DNA of 64,000 bases, taken from contig CAYHEC010000006.1 in NCBI GenBank assembly GCA_964355675.1, positions 1 through 64,000 on the forward strand, given 5' to 3'. The notes under the pieces are model-generated. The model was given only the letters and a program-made list of their open reading frames with translations, made no database searches and was not told where the DNA came from. Every line of letters begins with the position of its first letter. The first letter of the stretch is position 1. This document shows positions 17,278 to 29,523 of the stretch, piece after piece. Position numbers and translations under genes: made by a program. Origin of the DNA: an uncultured Caldithrix sp. GTDB lineage: Bacteria > Electryoneota > AABM5-125-24 > Hatepunaeales > Hatepunaeaceae.

Positions 17278-17550
17278 TTAATTTTCAATGGGCTCCCGTC
17301 CCTCTACCAACGGCCCCACCGCGAGGTCTTCGTCGATCAGCGGCCAATGAATGCCGTAGCCGGAGGGGGACATTCTTAACCCCTGTCGCTCCAAGTCCGA
17401 AGCCATGGAGAGAGACAGAGAACATTCCTCCCACTTCAGAAAGTACCGCCCAGCGCCGGTCACAATAGTCAAGCCTTCTTTGGTCGCGCTGACCTCCTTG
17501 GCAAGGATGACCTGTCTCCGGTATTCTACCGGTTGTGCAATTTCTGCCAT
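17278..17550 (-). CDS. DUF2442 domain protein (putative antitoxin-like partner of DUF4160)
   Basis: MSPSGYGIHWPLIDEDLAVGPL is the typical DUF2442 C-terminal motif. Overlaps the upstream DUF4160 gene. Confidence 0.75.
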   Translation of the reverse strand: MAEIAQPVEYRRQVILAKEVSATKEGLTIVTGAGRYFLKWEECSLSLSMASDLERQGLRMSPSGYGIHWPLIDEDLAVGPLVEGREPIEN

Positions 17551-17777
17551 GCCAGGGTAACCTCCTCTAAATTCTCAAAAATGATTTGACGCACCTCGCG
17601 TCTCAGCGCTGGCGTCATTCGCCAAGCCCAAGCTTCCTCTATCTCGAAGTCATCCACCCGAACCCAATACTTGCATTCCGCGTCGCCCTTTTCAGCGTGG
17701 ACATGCATCGGTTCGATTCCCTCGTTCGGGTAGATGATGATATGCCAGCCATGCTGATAAACGATTGTCGGGCTCAT
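17526..17777 (-). CDS. DUF4160 domain protein
   Basis: MSPTIVYQHGWHIIIYPNEGIEPMHVHAEKGDAECKYWV fits the DUF4160 N-terminal pattern. Confidence 0.75.
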   Translation of the reverse strand: MSPTIVYQHGWHIIIYPNEGIEPMHVHAEKGDAECKYWVRVDDFEIEEAWAWRMTPALRREVRQIIFENLEEVTLAWQKLHNR

Positions 17778-20381: not shown

Positions 20382-20394
20382 TTGGTTTCCTTTT

Positions 20395-20446
20395 AGTACG
20401 ACAGGCGTCCCTGCCTGTCACCTCATCATTCCGGCGAAAGCCGGAA
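20395..20446. repeat. Hairpin repeats AGTACGACAGGCGTCCCTGCCTGTCAC (20395-20421) and ATTCCGGC-GAAA-GCCGGAAT (20427-20446)
   Basis: The first is an exact copy of 9432-9458. The second belongs to the CATTCC-hairpin family (4357-4377, 15153-15175). Confidence 0.85.
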
Positions 20447-20674
20447 TCTATTCGATTCCCCCCTCCTGCTATTTGCAGGGGGGTGCAGGGGCGTGTCTTT
20501 GCGAGGAATGTAGTGACGAGGCAATCTTAGCACGATGGGTCTCTGTACCCGTCACCATATTTTACCACCCGATAGAACGACAATGTTTCATTCCGTTGTC
20601 AACTTGTTTTCCAATAATTGCAGTAACTTACTAAACATTCCCGCCAGACTGATGATGAGTATTAGGAAATCCAA

Positions 20675-21349
20675 CTAAGGCGCTTTGTAATATACTGCGG
20701 TAGGCCCCATATACTTAATACCCTCTTTTTGCTCTAAAAGTAGTCGAGCAATTTCCAGCTTGTGAGTTTCTCTTTTATGTTGCCTAACATAATCTACGGC
20801 ACTTCGCAAAAGATATAATTTCAAGTAGTCGGCGGTACTCTCGAGGCTTAACCTGCCCTGAATGAATTTGCTAAAAGTGGCAATTAAGGATTTAGTAATT
20901 ATCGCTTTTGTATTCACAGTGACAGTTCTGTTTGTACCATCAATTGGCTCAAATCCAATTTTATCAAATCCAACAAAGGCTTTTGCTCCGATCTCCATTG
21001 CTTTCATACCTAAGCTTTCGGAACCACAACTGAAACAAAACACCGCTTTATTCTTGAACAAACTTAAGTTATCTTTATTAATGATTTCGGTAGATTCTCT
21101 TGTTTCTACAGCAATGCGATCTCTGTATTCACCTCCGTAAACACAATCATCACGGCCATGTGCCATTATGATTACAAATTCTACGCTTGCTTTTTCAAGT
21201 TCGACTAAGGCTAAGTTCTGATCACACTTATCGCTGAGTCTAAAAGATTTAAATGCATGTTTTTCCAACATAGTCACAACTGGTCCTAAATATTTTGTAT
21301 CTTCTGCAACAGAGTGAATACAAATACTACGATTTGTAGATTCGGTCAT
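20675..21349 (-). CDS. Caspase-haemoglobinase-fold / CHAT-like putative cysteine protease (gene 4 of the dcm operon)
   Basis: Beta-alpha-beta order with VIIMAH64G (His codon 21158-21160) and VFCFSC108GS (Cys codon 21026-21028), followed by MEIGAKAFVGF. This matches the His-Cys dyad context of caspase/CHAT domains. 4-nt ATGA overlap with the upstream gene. Confidence 0.5.
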   Translation of the reverse strand: MTESTNRSICIHSVAEDTKYLGPVVTMLEKHAFKSFRLSDKCDQNLALVELEKASVEFVIIMAHGRDDCVYGGEYRDRIAVETRESTEIINKDNLSLFKNKAVFCFSCGSESLGMKAMEIGAKAFVGFDKIGFEPIDGTNRTVTVNTKAIITKSLIATFSKFIQGRLSLESTADYLKLYLLRSAVDYVRQHKRETHKLEIARLLLEQKEGIKYMGPTAVYYKAP

Positions 21350-22014
21350 TTATTTAAGTCAACTAAACATGCCACACCGAACTCAACAATTTCATGAGCA
21401 AGTCGCTTACCAATTTCATTTTGTTGTCTTACCGATTCTGCAAGCTCACGGAAACTTTTTCCATCTAAACCGGAGTTGGTTGTCTTCGCAAACAATCGCT
21501 CGTGTTTCATCAGAAATCTATCTGCCAACAAACACAGTGGCGGTGTCCCTAATGCCGTATAAACTTCATTCGGGAGATCGTCGCGCGAAATGAACCGATC
21601 AATCTCAGCGTCAAGTAGCTTTCTTAATAACTCTTCGGAAGTTTTCAATTTACTTGTCTTATCGTTTTCAATGACTTTTAGAAGCGTTTTACTCAGGGTT
21701 CCAGAATATAGCATCAGAATTGCTGCCCGATTCATAGCCCTAATAATTGCGATTATTTGGAGCGATAAATGAATTGCTGACGAAGGCTCGCTATTCGCAT
21801 CCAAGTTGATGTCAACTAAAACAACATCCCAGAATTCACTCGCGCGTTCTTGCACTTCCTTCAGAAAATTATCCCTGCTATGGCCTGACGAAAAGTCGAT
21901 TGGATTTATTTGATGGATATAAACCTCACCATATTCTCCCTCAATAGCACGTTTTGTCTCAGTAAATGCATTTGCATTTCTTATATCATCAATTGCGAGA
22001 ATACGGATTTTCAT
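21346..22014 (-). CDS. CheY-like receiver (REC) domain protein with an uncharacterised helical C-terminal domain (gene 3)
   Basis: MKIRILAIDD (acidic pair), FWDVVLVD68INL (putative phospho-acceptor, codon 21811-21813), AAILMLYSG (conserved Ser/Thr position). 4-nt overlaps on both sides. Confidence 0.55.
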   Translation of the reverse strand: MKIRILAIDDIRNANAFTETKRAIEGEYGEVYIHQINPIDFSSGHSRDNFLKEVQERASEFWDVVLVDINLDANSEPSSAIHLSLQIIAIIRAMNRAAILMLYSGTLSKTLLKVIENDKTSKLKTSEELLRKLLDAEIDRFISRDDLPNEVYTALGTPPLCLLADRFLMKHERLFAKTTNSGLDGKSFRELAESVRQQNEIGKRLAHEIVEFGVACLVDLNK

Positions 22015-24320
22015 GCTATAAACTCCAATACGAATTTTGCACCCCCGAGGATCGGATCATTACCTTCGAGAGAAATTTTCCCATTCATGTCTTTCATAAT
22101 ATCCCTGCACGTATATAACCCAATTCCGGATCCTCCCCGTCCACTAATTCCAAGTTCGAAAAGTGAATCAACGAGACCTTTCTTAACTGCCTCTCCATCA
22201 TTGGATATTGTGACAAGCATCCTCCCATTAGACGATGTGATACTAACAAGGAGATTTCTTGCATGTGCCTTAATAGCATTATCCACTAAGTTATCAAATA
22301 ATATTGTAATCGCCATCGGTCTGAATAGCCTTACAAATTCATTATTGTCATAAGTAATAGAGACTTTCGGTGTTGGTCTTGGTAAATCATCACCCTTTAG
22401 GTATTCGTATATAAATCGCCCTAAATCGTTCCGAATTTGTTCGACCTTTAGATTGAAATCGGCCTTAGTAACAATGCTACTTACTTTTACAGTCTCATCA
22501 ATCCATAGCTTAATTTTACTCAGAGAATCAAGTAAGCTATCTCTATCGTATTTATCGCGTTTAATATCGCTAATGAGAGAGCTTATTGTTCCACGCATTT
22601 TTTGTGCGGATAACTTGATCCAATGATCCAAATTATCACGAATCTCTTCTGGATTTCTCGCATTTGCTAACAGGAAAATATTCTTCCGTCGCTCAGTCTC
22701 ATACCTTCGTTCTGCCTGTTTACGCGACTGTTTGGCTTCTACAGCTTCCTTTTCGGCTTCTTCGCGAGCGGCTGTCAAGTCTGCATAGCGTTTTTCAATC
22801 AAGGCTATCTCTTTAAGAAGCGATTCATTGCCTGTATTCATTGCAATTCGCTTTAGATTCGATAGTGTGGACACGACACTTGCGGATTGTCGGTCGCTTA
22901 AGATATCAAGGAGTTTTTGATCGTACTCAATATCCAAAATATCTTTGGAGTCAGTCAATTTCTTGATGATCTCAAGTATATCGACTTTAACATCAATCGG
23001 TAGCAGTTCTTCATCTGTTCCTTTTGGCGGAGTACCCCATTTAATGGTTTCTATAGTATATTTTTCCAAGCGTTTCAAGGCGTAATCCCAAAAAAATTCT
23101 TGCAAATCACGCCATTCAGGTGAATCTATAAAGCCAGCATTCCTGCTTGAGGTTTCCCTGAAATGTGAGTCATCACCATACACCTCTATACGACCCGAAA
23201 GCTCTCTTGTCCCAAGATTTCGATAGTATCCTTGCTGTTTTCTTCGATCGATACCAAGCCCATCATCACCTTCATCACCAAATGGGTGTAAACGAAAGCC
23301 ATTTTTATACACAAATACAGAACCATAGGCAACATTATGCATACCTACAGCCCTATGGAAATGTAATTTTGCAGATCTATTGAGAGCAAACAGATAGATA
23401 CGGACATTGGCTAAAGAATCATACGGACATTTTTCAGTGATGCGATATATCAATGAACCGCGATCAGTTAGAGTTGTAGATACAGTTTCACATTTACTAT
23501 CTACGACACATTGTATCTGCGTAGTCCTAAGTCTCAAATCTTCAAAAAGAAAGTTTCGTATTGTACCATTTATACAATTTCTCTCGTCTTCTTCAAGCTC
23601 ATCTGAAAATTGCTCTTCCGGAACAATCAGTTCAATAGTAAATCCCTCCGCATCATTCTCCTGATTAGGGTTTATCAATTTGCGCAATGCATCGCGTAGC
23701 TTTTTAATTTTTAAACGATCCCATGTCTCGCGTAGGCCAGAAATCTCTAAAATGGTTCCTACATTGAGATTGTAAGGATTTCTTTCACTGGAGGAAATAC
23801 TCACATGAATATCGACGAATTCTTTCTTACTGTCTTCCTCAAATTCCTGCCAATCAACATCCACTCTTTCAATAAGTTCATTTGCATTAGCACGCGTGTA
23901 AAGGCTCAGAAGATTGCCTAACCTATCACATGAAAAACGCCCTATCCCCTTCGCTCCGGCAAATGTGCGCTTACCGACAATTTTATTGCGATAATCTCTT
24001 GATTGGTCAAATAGGTCGTCTTCGACTCCTTCGTGTTTTGCAGAATATGCAACAAATAGCCATTTATTTACAACATCATCAGGAGTCATGCCTTTACCAT
24101 CGTCCGCAATGATAAGTCGAGGAGCAGACGTGCGAAGTCCTTCGAATCGTATTTGTACACTACGCGCATGGGCATCGAATGAGTTCTTTACTAATTCAAA
24201 TACAGCAACAAAATCATCGGTGATTAGTTCACGCCCGATGATCTTCTTTAATGCCGAGCTGATCCGGAATGTGGCCGGGCGTTTAGGCATCTGACAACAC
24301 CTTCTTAATCGACATTCCAA
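22011..24320 (-). CDS. Dual GHKL ATPase: N-terminal HATPase_c_3/MORC-MutL-like module, coiled coil, and a C-terminal histidine-kinase-type ATPase module (gene 2); probable start is the ATG at 24290
   Basis: N-terminal N-box ELVKNSFDA (nt 24171-24197), G1 DDGKGM and G2 GAKGIGRFS. Coiled coil LTAAREEAEKEAVEAKQSRKQAERRYETERRK. C-terminal NLVDNAIKA, NDGEAV and GRGGSGIGLY (nt ~22014-22292). The ATG at 24290 overlaps the dcm stop (ATGCCTAA). Confidence 0.75.
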   Translation of the reverse strand: MECRLRRCCQMPKRPATFRISSALKKIIGRELITDDFVAVFELVKNSFDAHARSVQIRFEGLRTSAPRLIIADDGKGMTPDDVVNKWLFVAYSAKHEGVEDDLFDQSRDYRNKIVGKRTFAGAKGIGRFSCDRLGNLLSLYTRANANELIERVDVDWQEFEEDSKKEFVDIHVSISSSERNPYNLNVGTILEISGLRETWDRLKIKKLRDALRKLINPNQENDAEGFTIELIVPEEQFSDELEEDERNCINGTIRNFLFEDLRLRTTQIQCVVDSKCETVSTTLTDRGSLIYRITEKCPYDSLANVRIYLFALNRSAKLHFHRAVGMHNVAYGSVFVYKNGFRLHPFGDEGDDGLGIDRRKQQGYYRNLGTRELSGRIEVYGDDSHFRETSSRNAGFIDSPEWRDLQEFFWDYALKRLEKYTIETIKWGTPPKGTDEELLPIDVKVDILEIIKKLTDSKDILDIEYDQKLLDILSDRQSASVVSTLSNLKRIAMNTGNESLLKEIALIEKRYADLTAAREEAEKEAVEAKQSRKQAERRYETERRKNIFLLANARNPEEIRDNLDHWIKLSAQKMRGTISSLISDIKRDKYDRDSLLDSLSKIKLWIDETVKVSSIVTKADFNLKVEQIRNDLGRFIYEYLKGDDLPRPTPKVSITYDNNEFVRLFRPMAITILFDNLVDNAIKAHARNLLVSITSSNGRMLVTISNDGEAVKKGLVDSLFELGISGRGGSGIGLYTCRDIMKDMNGKISLEGNDPILGGAKFVLEFIA

Positions 24321-25584
24321 TCAATCGAGCGAATAGCGGTGGTATCGCATTCCCGACCTGTGTGTAGCGAGGAGTCTCTAACGCACGCCGATGTCCGCCA
24401 GTAGTATAAGGTCCTTTGAACTCAAACCAATCGGGAAAGGTCTGTAGTCGGGCGCACTCTCGGACGGTTAGTACTCGGGCTTCTGAGTAATGGATATTAT
24501 CGTCCGGTATCGTTGTTATAGTAGGAGCGGTTTGATCAGCGTTAAGCACCACAACGCTCCGCTTCATTAAGCCAAATTGTTCTCGATCTGTCCCCTCTAT
24601 CCTTTTATCTCTGACAGCATGAGACAGGAGTTTTTCAAATACACCTCTGTTCGCAACGGTATGGTTCACAAAACGATGACTATCGGGGATGTGTTGTTCT
24701 TGAATGTTTCTCATGTACTTCTGAACAGGAGTGCATGAATCCGCCGTTATGCCGGATTTGAACCCTCTTGAATCAGGGCATTGTGTGGATCCGTGTTGCT
24801 GTTCCAGGTCGGAGATCGCCGATTGAACGCTATTGAGGCTTGGTAACCCAAGTGTTGACAGTCGTTCAAACCTTGTTGCTTTTAAGTCATCAAAGATGGC
24901 GTTTGCGAGGTTCTCGCGTGTTGCTACTGCAATAAAGCGAACTCTGCGTTGTGGAACACCGTATTGCGACATGTCTATGAGTTCGCCTTGCGCGTCGCTA
25001 TAGCCCAATTCCTTCAGTCTATCAATGACCACTTTAGAATATGCTACGCCAGATTCAGCATTGGCCTTAAAACGCTTTGTGAAGCCGCGAACGTTCTCAA
25101 AAATGATGCAGCGAGGTTGGACTAACTCAACGAATTCCAAGTATGAATGTACAAGACGATTGCGACTGTCGCCTTCTCGTCTTCGCCCAGCAGTTGAGAA
25201 TCCTTGACAGGGTGGTCCGCCAGCTACAAGATCGACTTGCCCACAAAGCCCCTTTAGTTCATCAACCTTCTCGATGAGCAAATCCTGTATATCCCAATTT
25301 GTGACGGATAACCAATCTGGCCACTCGTAATGAGTGTGCTTATCGATCAGGTTTGTTCGAAGCGTCAAAAACGCCGATTGGCTGCGTTCAACAGCAAAAA
25401 GCCCTCTCCACCCAGATTGGTGAAGACCGGTACTCAAGCCGCCACAGCCAGCAAACAAATCGATTACTGTGAGTTCGCTATGTTCGTTCTCTTTTATCAA
25501 AATTCCTTTATTATTTGAAGGGCGAGCAAAGACGGGCTCGGTAAACCGGCCCCTACGCGACAGGGTGCGGACACCCTGTCGCAC
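24283..25584 (-). CDS. dcm: DNA (cytosine-5)-methyltransferase (gene 1); true start is probably the TTG at 25500
   Basis: Motif I DLFAGCGG (nt 25438-25455), motif IV GGPPCQGFS (PCQ 25204-25212), IIFENVRGF, VPQRRVRFIAV, TVRECARLQTFPD. The first 28 codons of the long ORF are encoded by repeat elements. Confidence 0.9.
   Translation of the reverse strand: MRQGVRTLSRRGRFTEPVFARPSNNKGILIKENEHSELTVIDLFAGCGGLSTGLHQSGWRGLFAVERSQSAFLTLRTNLIDKHTHYEWPDWLSVTNWDIQDLLIEKVDELKGLCGQVDLVAGGPPCQGFSTAGRRREGDSRNRLVHSYLEFVELVQPRCIIFENVRGFTKRFKANAESGVAYSKVVIDRLKELGYSDAQGELIDMSQYGVPQRRVRFIAVATRENLANAIFDDLKATRFERLSTLGLPSLNSVQSAISDLEQQHGSTQCPDSRGFKSGITADSCTPVQKYMRNIQEQHIPDSHRFVNHTVANRGVFEKLLSHAVRDKRIEGTDREQFGLMKRSVVVLNADQTAPTITTIPDDNIHYSEARVLTVRECARLQTFPDWFEFKGPYTTGGHRRALETPRYTQVGNAIPPLFARLIGMSIKKVLSDA
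25531..25582. repeat. Reverse copy of the CGCGTAGGGGCC-GTTTAC(C)GAGCCCGTC element (25531-25559) plus hairpin GCGACAGGGTG-CGGA-CACCCTGTCGC (25557-25582)
   Basis: Read directly: 11-bp perfect stem. Family members at 1867-1890, 29549-29578, 44611-44634 and 44660-44684. Confidence 0.85.
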
Positions 25585-25591
25585 AAGAAAA

Positions 25592-25670
25592 TCACAGATC
25601 GATCACGCCCGTAGCCCCTATCCGATAAGTCTTTTCAGCCTTCTGTGACTCAGTGATCGATTTTTGACCC
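25592..25670. repeat. Second copy of the GATCGATCAC...GTGACTCNGTGATCGATTTTT element
   Basis: Arms at 25597-25606 and 25653-25661, followed by a T-tract. The flanks match 7652-7669 and 7703-7732. Confidence 0.75.
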
Positions 25671-25673
25671 CTC

Positions 25674-26450
25674 CTACCTCGCAAACTTCTTCACCCAGCC
25701 GAAGTACTGCGTAAAGAACGTCATAGTATCATAAACAATCCGCGAATTGTAGATGTAGAACCACAAACCCGACGTTGTGACCAACTTATAGAACAAAATC
25801 CCGCAGAGGAAGATCGTTCCAATGAAAATCGCGCCGATCCTGTTGAAATACTTGACTCTACCGATCCGCATCTCTTCCATGTAGTAGCGGATTCGTTTAT
25901 CGTTCAGGTGATCTTCGGTCAAAAATATCCCCATAATCGACCACGCCAAACCAACCATCACCCCCACGATAATCGTCAGTGACGGCATCCACTCGATTAT
26001 ATTCGGGTAGCTTATTTGCCAATAAACAGTCAACCCCATCCCCAAGAAGACCATTATGTTAGTGAATTTACGGAAGTTGCGCAAGTAGGCCGGCAATTTG
26101 AAGATGAATTTATTGCGCGCGGCTGTAGCTTCGACGTTTGCCTTGGCGATGTACTCGATTATCTGCCCGCCGAACCAGGAAAAAAACAAGAAACGAAATT
26201 GATGATCACCGATGTAGTCGAACAGCCGCCCGGTGCCGAAAATCTGTTCGAAAAATGCTACAATCACAACGGTTAGCATATATACCAACGACCAGAAAAT
26301 GTAGCCCTTGTCTTCGGCGAACAAGATCGTCGTGTCGCGGACCTGATCCCAAGTCGGCACTTTTTTAAGCGCCTCTCCGCAAGCGGGGCAGGTTTTCTCG
26401 CGGAAGAAGTTATAGGCGGAAATCGATCCCTTACAGTTCGGACAATGCAT
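25674..26450 (-). CDS. Membrane protein with an N-terminal zinc-ribbon (CPNC...CPAC) and ~6 TM helices
   Basis: MHCPNCKGSISAYNFFREKTCPACGE is followed by multiple hydrophobic helices. Function unknown. Confidence 0.5.
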   Translation of the reverse strand: MHCPNCKGSISAYNFFREKTCPACGEALKKVPTWDQVRDTTILFAEDKGYIFWSLVYMLTVVIVAFFEQIFGTGRLFDYIGDHQFRFLFFSWFGGQIIEYIAKANVEATAARNKFIFKLPAYLRNFRKFTNIMVFLGMGLTVYWQISYPNIIEWMPSLTIIVGVMVGLAWSIMGIFLTEDHLNDKRIRYYMEEMRIGRVKYFNRIGAIFIGTIFLCGILFYKLVTTSGLWFYIYNSRIVYDTMTFFTQYFGWVKKFAR

Positions 26451-26756: not shown

Positions 26757-27218
26757 CGTCTTCCATTGGAGCGCGTTGGTTTGCGGAGCCAAGATGTTAG
26801 CAATTGGGAGAACGAAATGTCAAACAAATTACGTTTCAGAGCCCTAATCGGGCTGATTGCGGTTATTATGATTGTGGATGGAACGCTACTACCATCAGGA
26901 GAAGCCGTAGCTCAAATCACCCACACAGTCGTCGTAAAGGACCTTATTGACCCTTATCCGGTTGAGGGTCTTGATCAAACTATTCACTTCCACTTTTACT
27001 TCAATAATCAGGAAGTAGATGATGTGGTGCCTGTAGAAACCGATCCAGGAGTCTATGAGGGCGAAACATTCCTTGATGCGCCAGAATATGATTCGTGGAC
27101 GGTCGAAATTGATCCGGACGATGATTTTGATTTTCCATATTTGGATCCAAACCCAACGGCTCACAAGTCATCACTGACTTACCTGTTTAATTGGATAATT
27201 GATGACAATCGCCCTTGA
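26709..27218 (+). CDS. Small secreted acidic protein; likely start is the ATG at 26817
   Basis: MSNKLRFRALIGLIAVIMIVDG is signal-like, followed by an Asp/Pro-rich domain. No family recognised. Confidence 0.4.
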   Translation: MIFFFAHIRVGSSEADRLPLERVGLRSQDVSNWENEMSNKLRFRALIGLIAVIMIVDGTLLPSGEAVAQITHTVVVKDLIDPYPVEGLDQTIHFHFYFNNQEVDDVVPVETDPGVYEGETFLDAPEYDSWTVEIDPDDDFDFPYLDPNPTAHKSSLTYLFNWIIDDNRP

Positions 27219-29523
27219 CCAAGGCGGATTAAAGAAAGTTTGGCGGGGAGGCGCAAGTTTCCCCGCCATTATTCTTAACAGCCTCATTTCGACATTCAAT
27301 TTCTTGAGATTTAAAATTATTATTTTACTCTTTTTGCCATTCGTTTTCTTTGAGCCTTCCTTTGCTCAACCAAGAATCGAGTGGCTTCGCACCTACAATG
27401 GCCCCCTCGACAGAGGTGGCGTTCTGTATGATGTATTTGCCACAGAAGAGGGAGGTTTTGCAATGACCGGCTCGGTCAGCGGAGATGAGCGCTATTGCTG
27501 GCTACTGGTGACAAATCGCGACGGTGGGGTGATTCATCAGAGCTCACATCCTCGGGCTTTCGAAAATCCGATTTGTGAAGGTAAAACTATAATACAGGAT
27601 GTCGCGGGAGGATATCTTATCGGTGGAAGTTTGAGGAGCCGCGACCTAACTCCGGCACGATTTGGTCTAATTCGAACTGACGAGGAGGGGGAGCTGATAT
27701 GGTGGCGAGAATATGCTATAGGAATGTGTTATGCAGTGATTGAAGAGAAAGCGGGTAATTTCATCGCTTGCGGAATCGGTCGAATCGGCCAAGCCTCAGG
27801 AGCATTCGTGGTCAAGTGCGACGTCGATGGAGATACGATATGGACTAAACTGTTTGAGAATGAGACCTATTTTAAAGGCTTACGCGAGACTGAAGATGGA
27901 ATTATTCTGGTGGGATTGGGGCAGGCTCAGACACTTATCTGTCGTCTTGATGAGGATGGGGGGCTTATTGATATGCAACGCCATGGACAGGGAGTTCTCT
28001 ACTCGTTAGTGTCCTGTCCTGCTGGTTTTTTAGCCTCAGGATCTGACGCTGGCAATGTTTTGGCAATGAGGCTTGCTGAAAATGGGAATCTGAGATGGAG
28101 ACGAGTGTACGATATTTCTGGTATTGCCTACGGCGTTGCTCGGATGCCCGATGAAGGCTTCATTCTCTGTATTGCCTCCTCTGGACACCGATTGCTCCGC
28201 ATCGACCGTGGAGGGAATGAAATGTGGAGGCGCTATGATGATGATATCAGGGGTAACGGCTGGCAGTCTATAGTGACGAATGTTGATGGTGCTGCTTATG
28301 TAGTTGGCGATTTTAATGGCAGTCAAGGATGCTTAATGAAAGTCCAGCCCGATGTCAGCCCTCCGGTCATTATTGATTGGACTCCTTCCCAATCTGAATT
28401 GAAAGTACTTCTCGGTGACTCAATAGATTTTGCAATTGTCGCTGAAGATATTCAGGATGATTCATTATGGTTTCGTTGGAGCCATAATCGTGATGATCTT
28501 GGGGTCGAAAATGATCACACTACTCTCGATTTTGATGAGTTGGGGTTGGATACGGTCAAATGCTCTGTGTTTGATAGTTCCGGCTCCGATCTGGCGGAAT
28601 GGCACGTCACCGTCACTGACCTCTACATCCAATCCTTCACCCCCGACACGCTCAACCTCACCATCCGCCGTGGCAACTCCGTTGACTTTGCCATCGATTC
28701 CGTTGCCGCCGTCGGCGGTAACGACGACATGCAGTACCTCTGGACAAAGACCAATCTTGATAATCAGGGAGAACCGGAGCGCTCGGGCGAGGACGCCCAA
28801 GCTACCATCCCCTTCCTCCAATCGGGGAACTTCGCTGTCGAGGGACTGGCTTACCGCGAGCAATCGAGCGACGCGGTCGTCTGGAATGTAGCAGTGAGTG
28901 GAGCAATCTGGAGCTTTGCACCGGAAGACATTACGCTTGAAGTCTTGCCCGACAGCCTCGTGAGGTTTGAGGTTTTTCCAAATGATCCCGATTCAGTCGG
29001 GTGGTCGATTGCGTGGCTTGTCGATGGGGAGGTTGCGCGGGAGGGTGAGACGACGCTGGAGTGGCGGTTCTTCGGTGAGGCGGACAGCTGTCCGCCTCAC
29101 CTCGTGCAGGTCGTTGTGGCTGATTCGGTTGAGGCGGATACCGTGACGTGGGAGGTGGTGGCAAGAGAGTTAGGGGTTGGGGATGAAGAGGCTGGCAGGC
29201 CGGGACGTCCTGCCCTACTGGATGTTTCGCCGAATCCGTTCAATTCAATGCTGACGATAAAGTACACGACGGGCTCGGCGGCCCGTCCTACGCGGCTTGC
29301 CATCTACGACGTCTCCGGGCGGGAGGTTGTCAGGCTGGTGGATGGTGGTTCTTCCGTCAACCCCCCGTGGTTGACGGGAAGGAACTCTGCCGACCGCAGG
29401 GGGTCGGCAGAAGAAACGAGTAGCGCCACCTGGAACGCCTCTCCTTTCCCTGCTGGAGTCTATCTCGTTCGTCTCCAAACCGGACAAGAGGTTTCGACCA
29501 AGAAGGTTGTTTTGATCCGGTAG
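27199..29523 (+). CDS. Large secreted repeat protein (beta-propeller-like and Ig-like repeats) with a T9SS C-terminal domain carrying an in-frame hairpin-repeat insertion
   Basis: C-terminal LLDVSPNPFNSMLTIKYT...LAIYDVSGREVVRLVDG[GSSVNPPWLTGRNSADRRGSAEETSS]ATWNASPFPAGVYLVRLQTGQEVSTKKVVLIR. The stop TAG is the start of a 28-nt palindrome. Confidence 0.65.
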   Translation: MMTIALDQGGLKKVWRGGASFPAIILNSLISTFNFLRFKIIILLFLPFVFFEPSFAQPRIEWLRTYNGPLDRGGVLYDVFATEEGGFAMTGSVSGDERYCWLLVTNRDGGVIHQSSHPRAFENPICEGKTIIQDVAGGYLIGGSLRSRDLTPARFGLIRTDEEGELIWWREYAIGMCYAVIEEKAGNFIACGIGRIGQASGAFVVKCDVDGDTIWTKLFENETYFKGLRETEDGIILVGLGQAQTLICRLDEDGGLIDMQRHGQGVLYSLVSCPAGFLASGSDAGNVLAMRLAENGNLRWRRVYDISGIAYGVARMPDEGFILCIASSGHRLLRIDRGGNEMWRRYDDDIRGNGWQSIVTNVDGAAYVVGDFNGSQGCLMKVQPDVSPPVIIDWTPSQSELKVLLGDSIDFAIVAEDIQDDSLWFRWSHNRDDLGVENDHTTLDFDELGLDTVKCSVFDSSGSDLAEWHVTVTDLYIQSFTPDTLNLTIRRGNSVDFAIDSVAAVGGNDDMQYLWTKTNLDNQGEPERSGEDAQATIPFLQSGNFAVEGLAYREQSSDAVVWNVAVSGAIWSFAPEDITLEVLPDSLVRFEVFPNDPDSVGWSIAWLVDGEVAREGETTLEWRFFGEADSCPPHLVQVVVADSVEADTVTWEVVARELGVGDEEAGRPGRPALLDVSPNPFNSMLTIKYTTGSAARPTRLAIYDVSGREVVRLVDGGSSVNPPWLTGRNSADRRGSAEETSSATWNASPFPAGVYLVRLQTGQEVSTKKVVLIR

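Follow-up and report, generated by a model that had tools for sequence, protein, structure and literature searches.

A methylase-linked cassette with a proposed phosphorelay and a predicted caspase-like protein as a rare variant of a widespread bacterial gene system

Why should a DNA cytosine methylase be encoded in one operon with an apparent histidine kinase, a receiver and a caspase-like protein? The question is raised by a four-gene cassette in a 64,000-nt stretch of DNA from an uncultured Caldithrix sp. (contig CAYHEC010000006.1, positions 1 to 64,000; hereinafter designated the window), whose genes, all on the minus strand, are labelled g1 to g4 in transcription order. We find that the window's quartet is a rare, undescribed variant, combining a receiver adaptor with a clan CD protease, of a widespread system known from in silico work. 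We are evenly divided on the fuller reading, in which the cassette would be a horizontally mobile four-gene conflict module against foreign DNA with a conserved sensor-transducer core and a phosphorelay-gated protease. The genes and the principal domains are as follows.

24283..25500, minus strand: g1, C5 cytosine DNA methylase of the Dcm type (PF00145, TIGR00675, PADLOC MTase_II)
22011..24290, minus strand: g2, 759-aa soluble paraMORC-histidine-kinase fusion (HATPase_c_3 and HATPase_c)
23829..24209, minus strand: N-terminal MutL/MORC-type GHKL ATPase module of g2, aa 28-154 (PF13589; Bergerat residues E32, N36, D63, G65 and G67)
22020..22685, minus strand: C-terminal histidine-kinase core of g2, aa 536-757, with helices resembling a dimerisation and histidine phosphotransfer (DHp) domain that contain H556 (codon 22623-22625), and a catalytic and ATP-binding (CA) domain
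21346..22014, minus strand: g3, 222-aa receiver protein, with a receiver (REC) fold at aa 1-156 (21547-22014) and three C-terminal helices at aa 157-222; key residues are D9/D10, the phospho-acceptor D68 (codon 21811-21813), S104 and R144
20675..21349, minus strand: g4, 224-aa cysteine peptidase-like protein of clan CD (caspase-haemoglobinase fold), with the dyad H64 (21158-21160) and C108 (21026-21028)

Gene order and linkage of the cassette

The four minus-strand open reading frames (ORFs) occupy 24283-25584 (g1, in its longest form), 22011-24290 (g2, counted from its ATG), 21346-22014 (g3) and 20675-21349 (g4), with the coordinates and the head-to-tail junctions that a preliminary description of the locus had given. 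The dcm stop codon lies inside the g2 start region at the junction ATGCCTAA, where the two genes overlap by 8 nt (24283-24290), and 4-nt ATGA overlaps join g2 to g3 (22011-22014) and g3 to g4 (21346-21349). Because the junctions overlap by 8 and 4 nt, g1-g4 form a single translationally coupled operon. The first gene, described earlier as an m5C methylase, indeed matches PF00145 (2.3e-54), TIGR00675 (2.6e-42) and the PADLOC model MTase_II (1e-77). Its start, however, had been placed at GTG 25584 and is most likely TTG 25500, which yields a protein of 405 aa, since the homologue in L001, the locus with the closest relative of the window's cassette, is also 405 aa long (70% identical) and a strong hairpin lies within the 84-nt extension of the ORF up to GTG 25584.

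To place the operon in a wider context, we scanned one genome per species (GTDB species representatives) for g2 relatives, found at least 401 and retained 80 loci, drawn from Bacteroidota, Verrucomicrobiota, Planctomycetota, Proteobacteria, Bacillota, Acidobacteriota and further phyla. A homologous dcm is present in all 80; in 76 it is the immediate, co-directional upstream neighbour of g2. An iterated profile seeded with g3 identifies a receiver gene directly downstream of g2 in 79 loci, and the third-gene proteins match Pfam Response_reg in 63 of the 80. The dcm, paraMORC-kinase and receiver genes are a widespread core trio.

Most third-gene proteins are 275-350 aa long and carry, near residue 220-275, the motif RNxxAH, which is the HEPN Rx4-6H signature. 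About 60 long third-gene proteins contain RNxxAH and two of them match HEPN models of Pfam (1e-5 and 4e-3); a fusion of the long receivers to a HEPN RNase domain is probable, and suggests a phosphorelay-controlled HEPN RNase. A second R-x5-H often follows RNxxAH by ~38 aa (third genes of L012-L088, e.g. L034:10370-11311 and L046:10311-11231).

The g4 family is found in 9 of the 80 genome loci, and these are exactly the loci with a short receiver (221-238 aa) devoid of RNxxAH. The same short-receiver rule holds among 22 IMG/VR contigs with g2 relatives, three of which contain the quartet, and none of the 12 g4-linked receivers is long or contains RNxxAH. Across the loci examined, g4 occurs in this operon alone, and only beside receivers without a probable HEPN domain. 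In four loci (L047, L060, L065 and L068) the third gene encodes a receiver only (130-141 aa), which in L065 (10265-11538) is directly followed by an HNH endonuclease protein (PF01844, 1.5e-12), a third effector arrangement. Since HEPN, HNH or g4 alternate behind conserved dcm, g2 and receiver genes, the system combines a constant sensor-transducer core with an effector that varies. Within it, the caspase-like gene is a minority replacement for the usual, probable HEPN effector, and is the new part. For two of the receiver-only loci, dcm is best matched by a ~735-760-aa ORF (L047:4538-6820 and L060:4602-6809) that ends ~1.2 kb upstream of g2 and does not abut it.

More diverged contigs retain the same organization. 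Distant g4 relatives (E down to 4e-4) remain part of the quartet in five of five informative contigs and keep its gene order in L090, L091, L092 and L094. In P0056 (Logan ERR5029655, a 2988-nt contig) a g3-like receiver and a g4-like protease domain are naturally fused in a 464-aa protein, whose gene overlaps the end of a >512-aa gene by 4 nt. The four genes, which the preliminary description had treated as one candidate system, thus recur together in the nine genome loci, the three IMG/VR contigs and further diverged contigs, and because of this co-occurrence in many diverged loci the quartet is one system.

Other genes may follow the cassette. In various loci they encode Vsr, an HhH-GPD glycosylase or a PNKP-type HAD phosphatase, and Vsr and HhH-GPD companions are typical of m5C systems. 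The ~150-aa PNKP-type phosphatase encoded after the receiver-HEPN gene in L030:11249-11692 and L062:11207-11680 (PF25109, 5e-35 and 7e-30) could heal the RNA ends that HEPN cleavage produces, or could serve to dephosphorylate the phospho-Asp.

Predicted sensor-kinase, receiver and protease

The g2 protein matches HATPase_c_3 (PF13589) at aa 28-154 (2.3e-19) and HATPase_c (PF02518) at aa 660-756 (1e-19), and both domains are present in all 34 scanned homologues (38-60% identity), from whose alignment conservation was read. In the N-terminal module E32, N36, D63, G65, G67 and the stretch G112-S120 are invariant, and the N-terminus gives weak profile matches to MutL and PMS1. In MORC and paraMORC ATPases such a module precedes an S5-fold transducer domain, and downstream of it in g2, K329 in the nearly invariant YKNGFR is a candidate transducer lysine. 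The C-terminal invariants comprise H556, D666, N671, G699 (of DxG), G720, G722 and G724. H556 is the one invariant histidine in the DHp-like segment, 115 residues ahead of the N-box, and the g2 family profile (aa ~536-765) aligns with the DHp and CA domains of the solved kinases ZraS (7e-16), ThkA, VicK and HK853.

Neither g3 nor g4 matches the Pfam, NCBIfam or PADLOC hidden Markov model (HMM) libraries, and their folds were for this reason taken from structure prediction. The AlphaFold2 (AF2) model of g3, built with 18 homologues (predicted local distance difference test (pLDDT) 86, predicted template modelling score (pTM) 0.85), shows a (βα)5 core followed by three C-terminal helices. D68 is the sole invariant column across 80 g3 family members; among the short g3 forms, conservation extends to the acidic pair (D9/D10), to S104 and to a basic residue at 144. 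Neither HMM scans nor the structure model of g3 revealed a DNA-binding output domain. We also considered the C-terminal helices as a truncated HEPN domain, which is unsupported, a profile from long types only matching the short types in the REC core alone; the R-x4-H at g3 166-171 is probably a chance occurrence rather than a HEPN motif, because it is missing in L001, L010 and others.

Among the four genes g3 evolves fastest, with 38% identity between the window and L001 compared with 60-75% for the other three. Between L009 and L011, g3 is 60% identical, g2 and g4 86-88% and g1 69%. Such rapid change would fit diversifying pressure on an adaptor, or recombination.

An exhaustive profile search for g4 returned 103 relatives, nearly all of 210-250 aa. 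In an 83-sequence alignment with a mean column identity of 26%, H64 and C108 are the sole invariant columns, and G65, S110, G127 and F128 are conserved at 90% or above. The AF2 model (pLDDT 94.8, pTM 0.91) depicts a single-domain protein with a helical C-terminal part, in which a core strand precedes each of H64 and C108, an arrangement shared with clan CD; the HG...[A/S]C signature is also present. Foldseek, independent of the other fold evidence, gives SAVED-CHAT the top rank (E = 1.3e-6), so that by two methods the predicted fold of g4 is that of clan CD. Pfam CHAT (PF12770) and Peptidase_C14 match none of the 83 members at E <= 0.01, and on this ground g4 is a new compact family within the clan; Peptidase_C25 weakly matches one of the 83 (2e-4).

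These results agree with the domain assignments of the preliminary description, which had seen in g2 a MORC/MutL-like N-terminus and a histidine-kinase-type C-terminus, in g3 a receiver with D68, and in g4 a caspase/CHAT-like fold with an H64/C108 dyad.

Proposed relay, mobility and alternatives

The cassette probably defends against foreign DNA, a function that we infer from sequence. In the relay that we propose, Dcm would methylate host DNA at a target motif, and the GHKL module of g2 would engage DNA, most likely at unmethylated target sites, by ATP-dependent dimerisation; the related BbrUII/HgiDII restriction enzymes carry the same module. DNA engagement would switch the g2 kinase core to autophosphorylation on H556, from which the phosphoryl group would pass to D68 of g3. 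Phosphorylated g3 would bind or oligomerise g4 via its C-terminal helices and turn its proteolytic activity on, whereupon g4 would cleave host or invader proteins and the infection would be stopped or the cell killed. In the common form, the same relay would turn on the receiver-fused HEPN RNase. That a MutL/MORC-type ATPase reads the Dcm methylation state and converts it into a His-Asp phosphorelay releasing a minimal caspase-like protease, with a phosphorelay-gated HEPN RNase as the common form in hundreds of species, is put forward tentatively and with less than even confidence.

Several points weigh against this scheme. That the GHKL module would read methylation state is itself a conjecture, and the literature searched contains no experimental work on the system or its members. 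The PADLOC (v2) scan returned no model for g2-g4, so that the case for a defence role is made from context. The window's g3 is linked to the long receivers transitively, its direct profile score being weak, and the 83-sequence alignment of g4 contains no conserved S1 determinant. H556 is insecure as a phosphorylation site, because HMM alignments offset it by 7 residues towards the N-terminus from the phospho-His in ZraS and ThkA and because the residue after it is non-acidic (W in the window; H, Q, N, S, T, Y or L in 33 homologues).

The atypical H-box with its 7-residue offset would also suit a cassette with no phosphorelay, whose C-terminal HATPase_c would act as a second ATPase or clamp, the receiver as a phosphorylation-independent adaptor or nucleotide-responsive switch, and g4 as a scaffold or processing protease for g2 and g3. 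Conflict systems have been proposed to include receiver domains that work without a kinase (PMC8195603). Yet H556 and D68 do not vary from phylum to phylum, the kinase retains intact N, G1 and G2 boxes, and both the H64/C108 dyad and the acidic pair, Ser/Thr and basic residue of the REC domain are conserved, the dyad without exception, which makes this explanation highly unlikely in our view.

Identical anatomy would serve a phosphorelay of inverse logic, in which the kinase has constitutive activity in healthy cells or on host DNA that is methylated, and the receiver, once phosphorylated, keeps the protease off until infection, or a perturbation of ATP or DNA, releases the effector. Many histidine kinases also act as phosphatases, and the Detocs defence system includes buffering logic, both of which speak for such an arrangement. 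In most response regulators, however, phosphorylation activates the output, and we regard the inverse scheme as distinctly improbable.

The proposed defence module appears to be horizontally mobile. In L091 (1-8945) the quartet, comprising a methylase, a 676-aa dual-GHKL protein, a 225-aa protein and a 314-aa g4 relative, stands directly after TniB, TniQ/TnsD and TnsE genes, and from this position it is read as cargo of a Tn7-like transposon. The genes flanking the L001 cassette differ from those in the window. GC content is 0.37-0.40 in g2-g4 and 0.48 in dcm, compared with 0.56 in the adjacent hflK and hflC (hflKC) and 0.48 in the whole window, as expected from the earlier remark that the cassette is AT-richer than hflK. 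Among PLSDB plasmids none has a full-length g2 or any g4, and the g2 relatives there are N-terminal-half matches alone; a distant DNA search of E. coli genomes for relatives found nothing. A more distant relative of the same design is the dcm-less pair of L089 (Enterobacter mori plasmid NZ_CP119171.1, 205844-209066), in which the gene for a 718-aa 'sensor histidine kinase' with HATPase_c_3 and HATPase_c overlaps that for a 357-aa receiver protein by 8 nt, near an AbiJ-NTD4 gene.

Strict dcm linkage, a mobile low-GC cassette carried as Tn7 cargo and toxin-type effectors (HEPN, HNH and protease) are likewise what would be seen in an addiction module. The relay would then monitor host methylation, and cassette loss or a methylation lapse would leave unmethylated self sites that turn the kinase on and let the protease kill the cell, stabilising the element by post-segregational killing; restriction-modification (R-M) systems behave in this way, as discussed in PMC8011034. 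Cassette loss, however, would also remove the effector genes, so that killing would need stable proteins. Sequence data cannot separate addiction from defence, and the two may coexist as in classical R-M; on balance we consider addiction unlikely.

Two hairpin-rich segments flank the cassette.

20385..20500, minus strand: GC-rich hairpin cluster between g4 and hflK (minimum free energy (MFE) -50.5 kcal/mol, z = -5.4)
25540..25680, minus strand: hairpins upstream of dcm (MFE -52.8 kcal/mol, z = -2.8), with a perfect 10-bp stem at ~25557-25583

At the first, GC content climbs from 0.37 to 0.58, marking the downstream edge of the low-GC cassette; the cluster is probably a terminator or an element resembling repetitive extragenic palindromes (REP-like), and the upstream hairpins are probably the terminator of the gene at 25674-26450. 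Both had been described as bracketing repeats. The hairpins are real, as their z values indicate, but the two sets are not copies of one another. Flanking direct repeats or att sites of at least 14 nt were sought around the cassette and none was found.

The gene directly upstream of dcm (25674-26450, minus strand) encodes a protein of 258 aa that has a CxxC...CxxC zinc ribbon at its N-terminus, several predicted membrane helices and no family match; it was rejected as a member of the system because it is absent next to the L001 cassette. Farther away, past hflKC and at a distance of ~3 kb from the cassette, overlapping DUF4160 (83 aa, 1e-10) and DUF2442 (90 aa, 1e-6) genes form a small toxin-antitoxin-like module (17278-17777, minus strand). 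On the other side, 27199-29523 (plus strand) encodes a 774-aa protein with a C-terminal tail resembling the sorting domain of the type IX secretion system (T9SS), and the identical gene in L006 gives a faint Por_Secre_tail match; such a tail hints at a host from the FCB group or from a phylum close to it.

The core trio is widespread, occurring in at least 401 bacterial species of many phyla and in predicted prophages; its architecture is unusual and the predictions made from it are directly testable. If the proposed phosphorelay holds, epigenetic self-marking, MORC-type DNA-sensing ATPases and two-component signalling would be joined in a single immune pathway whose outputs, be they RNase (HEPN), nuclease (HNH) or caspase-like protease, are interchangeable. 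The last would give prokaryotic immunity its first phosphorylation-gated protease effector, and the phosphorylated receiver would be a new control mode for a caspase-fold protease. The window's variant would add a compact new family to clan CD, and the cassette offers a tractable bacterial model of MORC-like GHKL ATPases that couple DNA state to a downstream signal.

Comparison with known systems

The core trio was described in silico by Bellieny-Rabelo, Pretorius & Moleleki 2021 (PMC8011034) as a HEF_HK / Response_reg_2 module resembling a two-component system. In that work, which contains no experiments, a receiver-like gene is linked to a HATPase_c_3 + HEF_HK + HATPase_c gene at 91.6% over 644 regions, C5 methylases lie upstream with Vsr or HNH nearby, and a regulatory link to R-M systems is proposed. 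The window's cassette shares with the module the succession of a C5 methylase, a soluble HATPase_c_3 + DHp-like + HATPase_c protein and a receiver-like protein with an invariant Asp, and the loci collected here show the same broad phyletic spread and the same frequent Vsr or HNH genes downstream. By contrast, PMC8011034 reports no further receiver domain, whereas most receivers here carry a probable HEPN motif; it mentions no caspase-like gene, which the window's variant has in g4; and it gives the core His as followed by Glu/Asp, whereas the invariant H556 precedes a non-acidic residue. Formal identity with the families of that module is tentative: PF19191 (HEF_HK) and PF19192 (Response_reg_2) match neither g2, g3, the 34 g2 or 80 g3 homologues nor the enterobacterial plasmid pair of the same architecture, the models being possibly missing from the Pfam copy. 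The literature searched describes neither a caspase-like fourth gene nor a HEPN motif for this system, the HEPN survey considered as a possible source (PMC3710099) does not describe the operon, and public records assign no name to the window's proteins. The preliminary remark that the four-gene architecture is not recognised as a named system thus stands for the caspase-like variant, which is undescribed, but not for the core trio, published in 2021 and present in at least 401 species.

The same authors speculated (PMC8011034) on an ordinary regulatory two-component system, tuning expression of the methylase or of neighbouring R-M genes; the pairing of kinase and receiver in an R-M neighbourhood, which they report, speaks for it. 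We rate this explanation as very improbable and as the weakest of the alternatives, because g3 has no detected DNA-binding output and the outputs of the family are of toxin type (probable HEPN, HNH and clan CD protease). The kinase, moreover, lacks a membrane or small-ligand sensor and has the DNA-enzyme-type GHKL module alone, and the cassette travels as a unit into unrelated contexts (L001 and L091).

The cassette resembles the BbrUII/HgiDII type II restriction enzymes and other R-M systems that contain paraMORC proteins (Iyer, Abhiman & Aravind 2008; PMC2292703) in its N-terminal GHKL module of the MutL/MORC type and in being partnered with an m5C methylase. Matches to NF050001 (BbrUII/HgiDII) range from E 1e-16 to 9e-23 and span model aa 25-183 to 25-214, at 60-80 bits against a cut-off of 550; window g2 scores 1e-16 and 60 bits, far under the 550-bit cut-off. 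Where these enzymes have their nuclease part, g2 has a histidine-kinase core instead, and Pfam, NCBIfam and PADLOC scans reveal no nuclease domain in g2-g4. The cassette is accordingly not a classical type II R-M system, as had been recognised from the outset.

Similar in its proposed logic is Detocs, a defensive two-component system made up of the kinase DtcA, the buffer receiver DtcB and the receiver-PNP effector DtcC. There too a cytoplasmic histidine kinase acts on a receiver that controls a toxic effector, and the effector domain is swappable. The likeness does not extend to sequence, the PADLOC scan giving no Detocs match for g2 or g3. The Detocs sensor differs from the MutL/MORC-type GHKL ATPase of the cassette, which has an obligatory Dcm partner and no buffer receiver, and where Detocs has a nucleosidase as effector, the cassette would have a clan CD protease encoded by its own gene (or, in the common form, a HEPN domain fused to the receiver).

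The CHAT proteases, including SAVED-CHAT of type III CRISPR/CBASS (8tl0) and TPR-CHAT/Csx29 of Craspase (7y83, 7zoq), are the nearest comparison for g4, which is instead minimal, a single domain of 224 aa. SAVED-CHAT and Craspase are triggered by a cyclic oligonucleotide or by RNA-guided target binding, whereas the trigger proposed for g4 would be a phosphorylated receiver.

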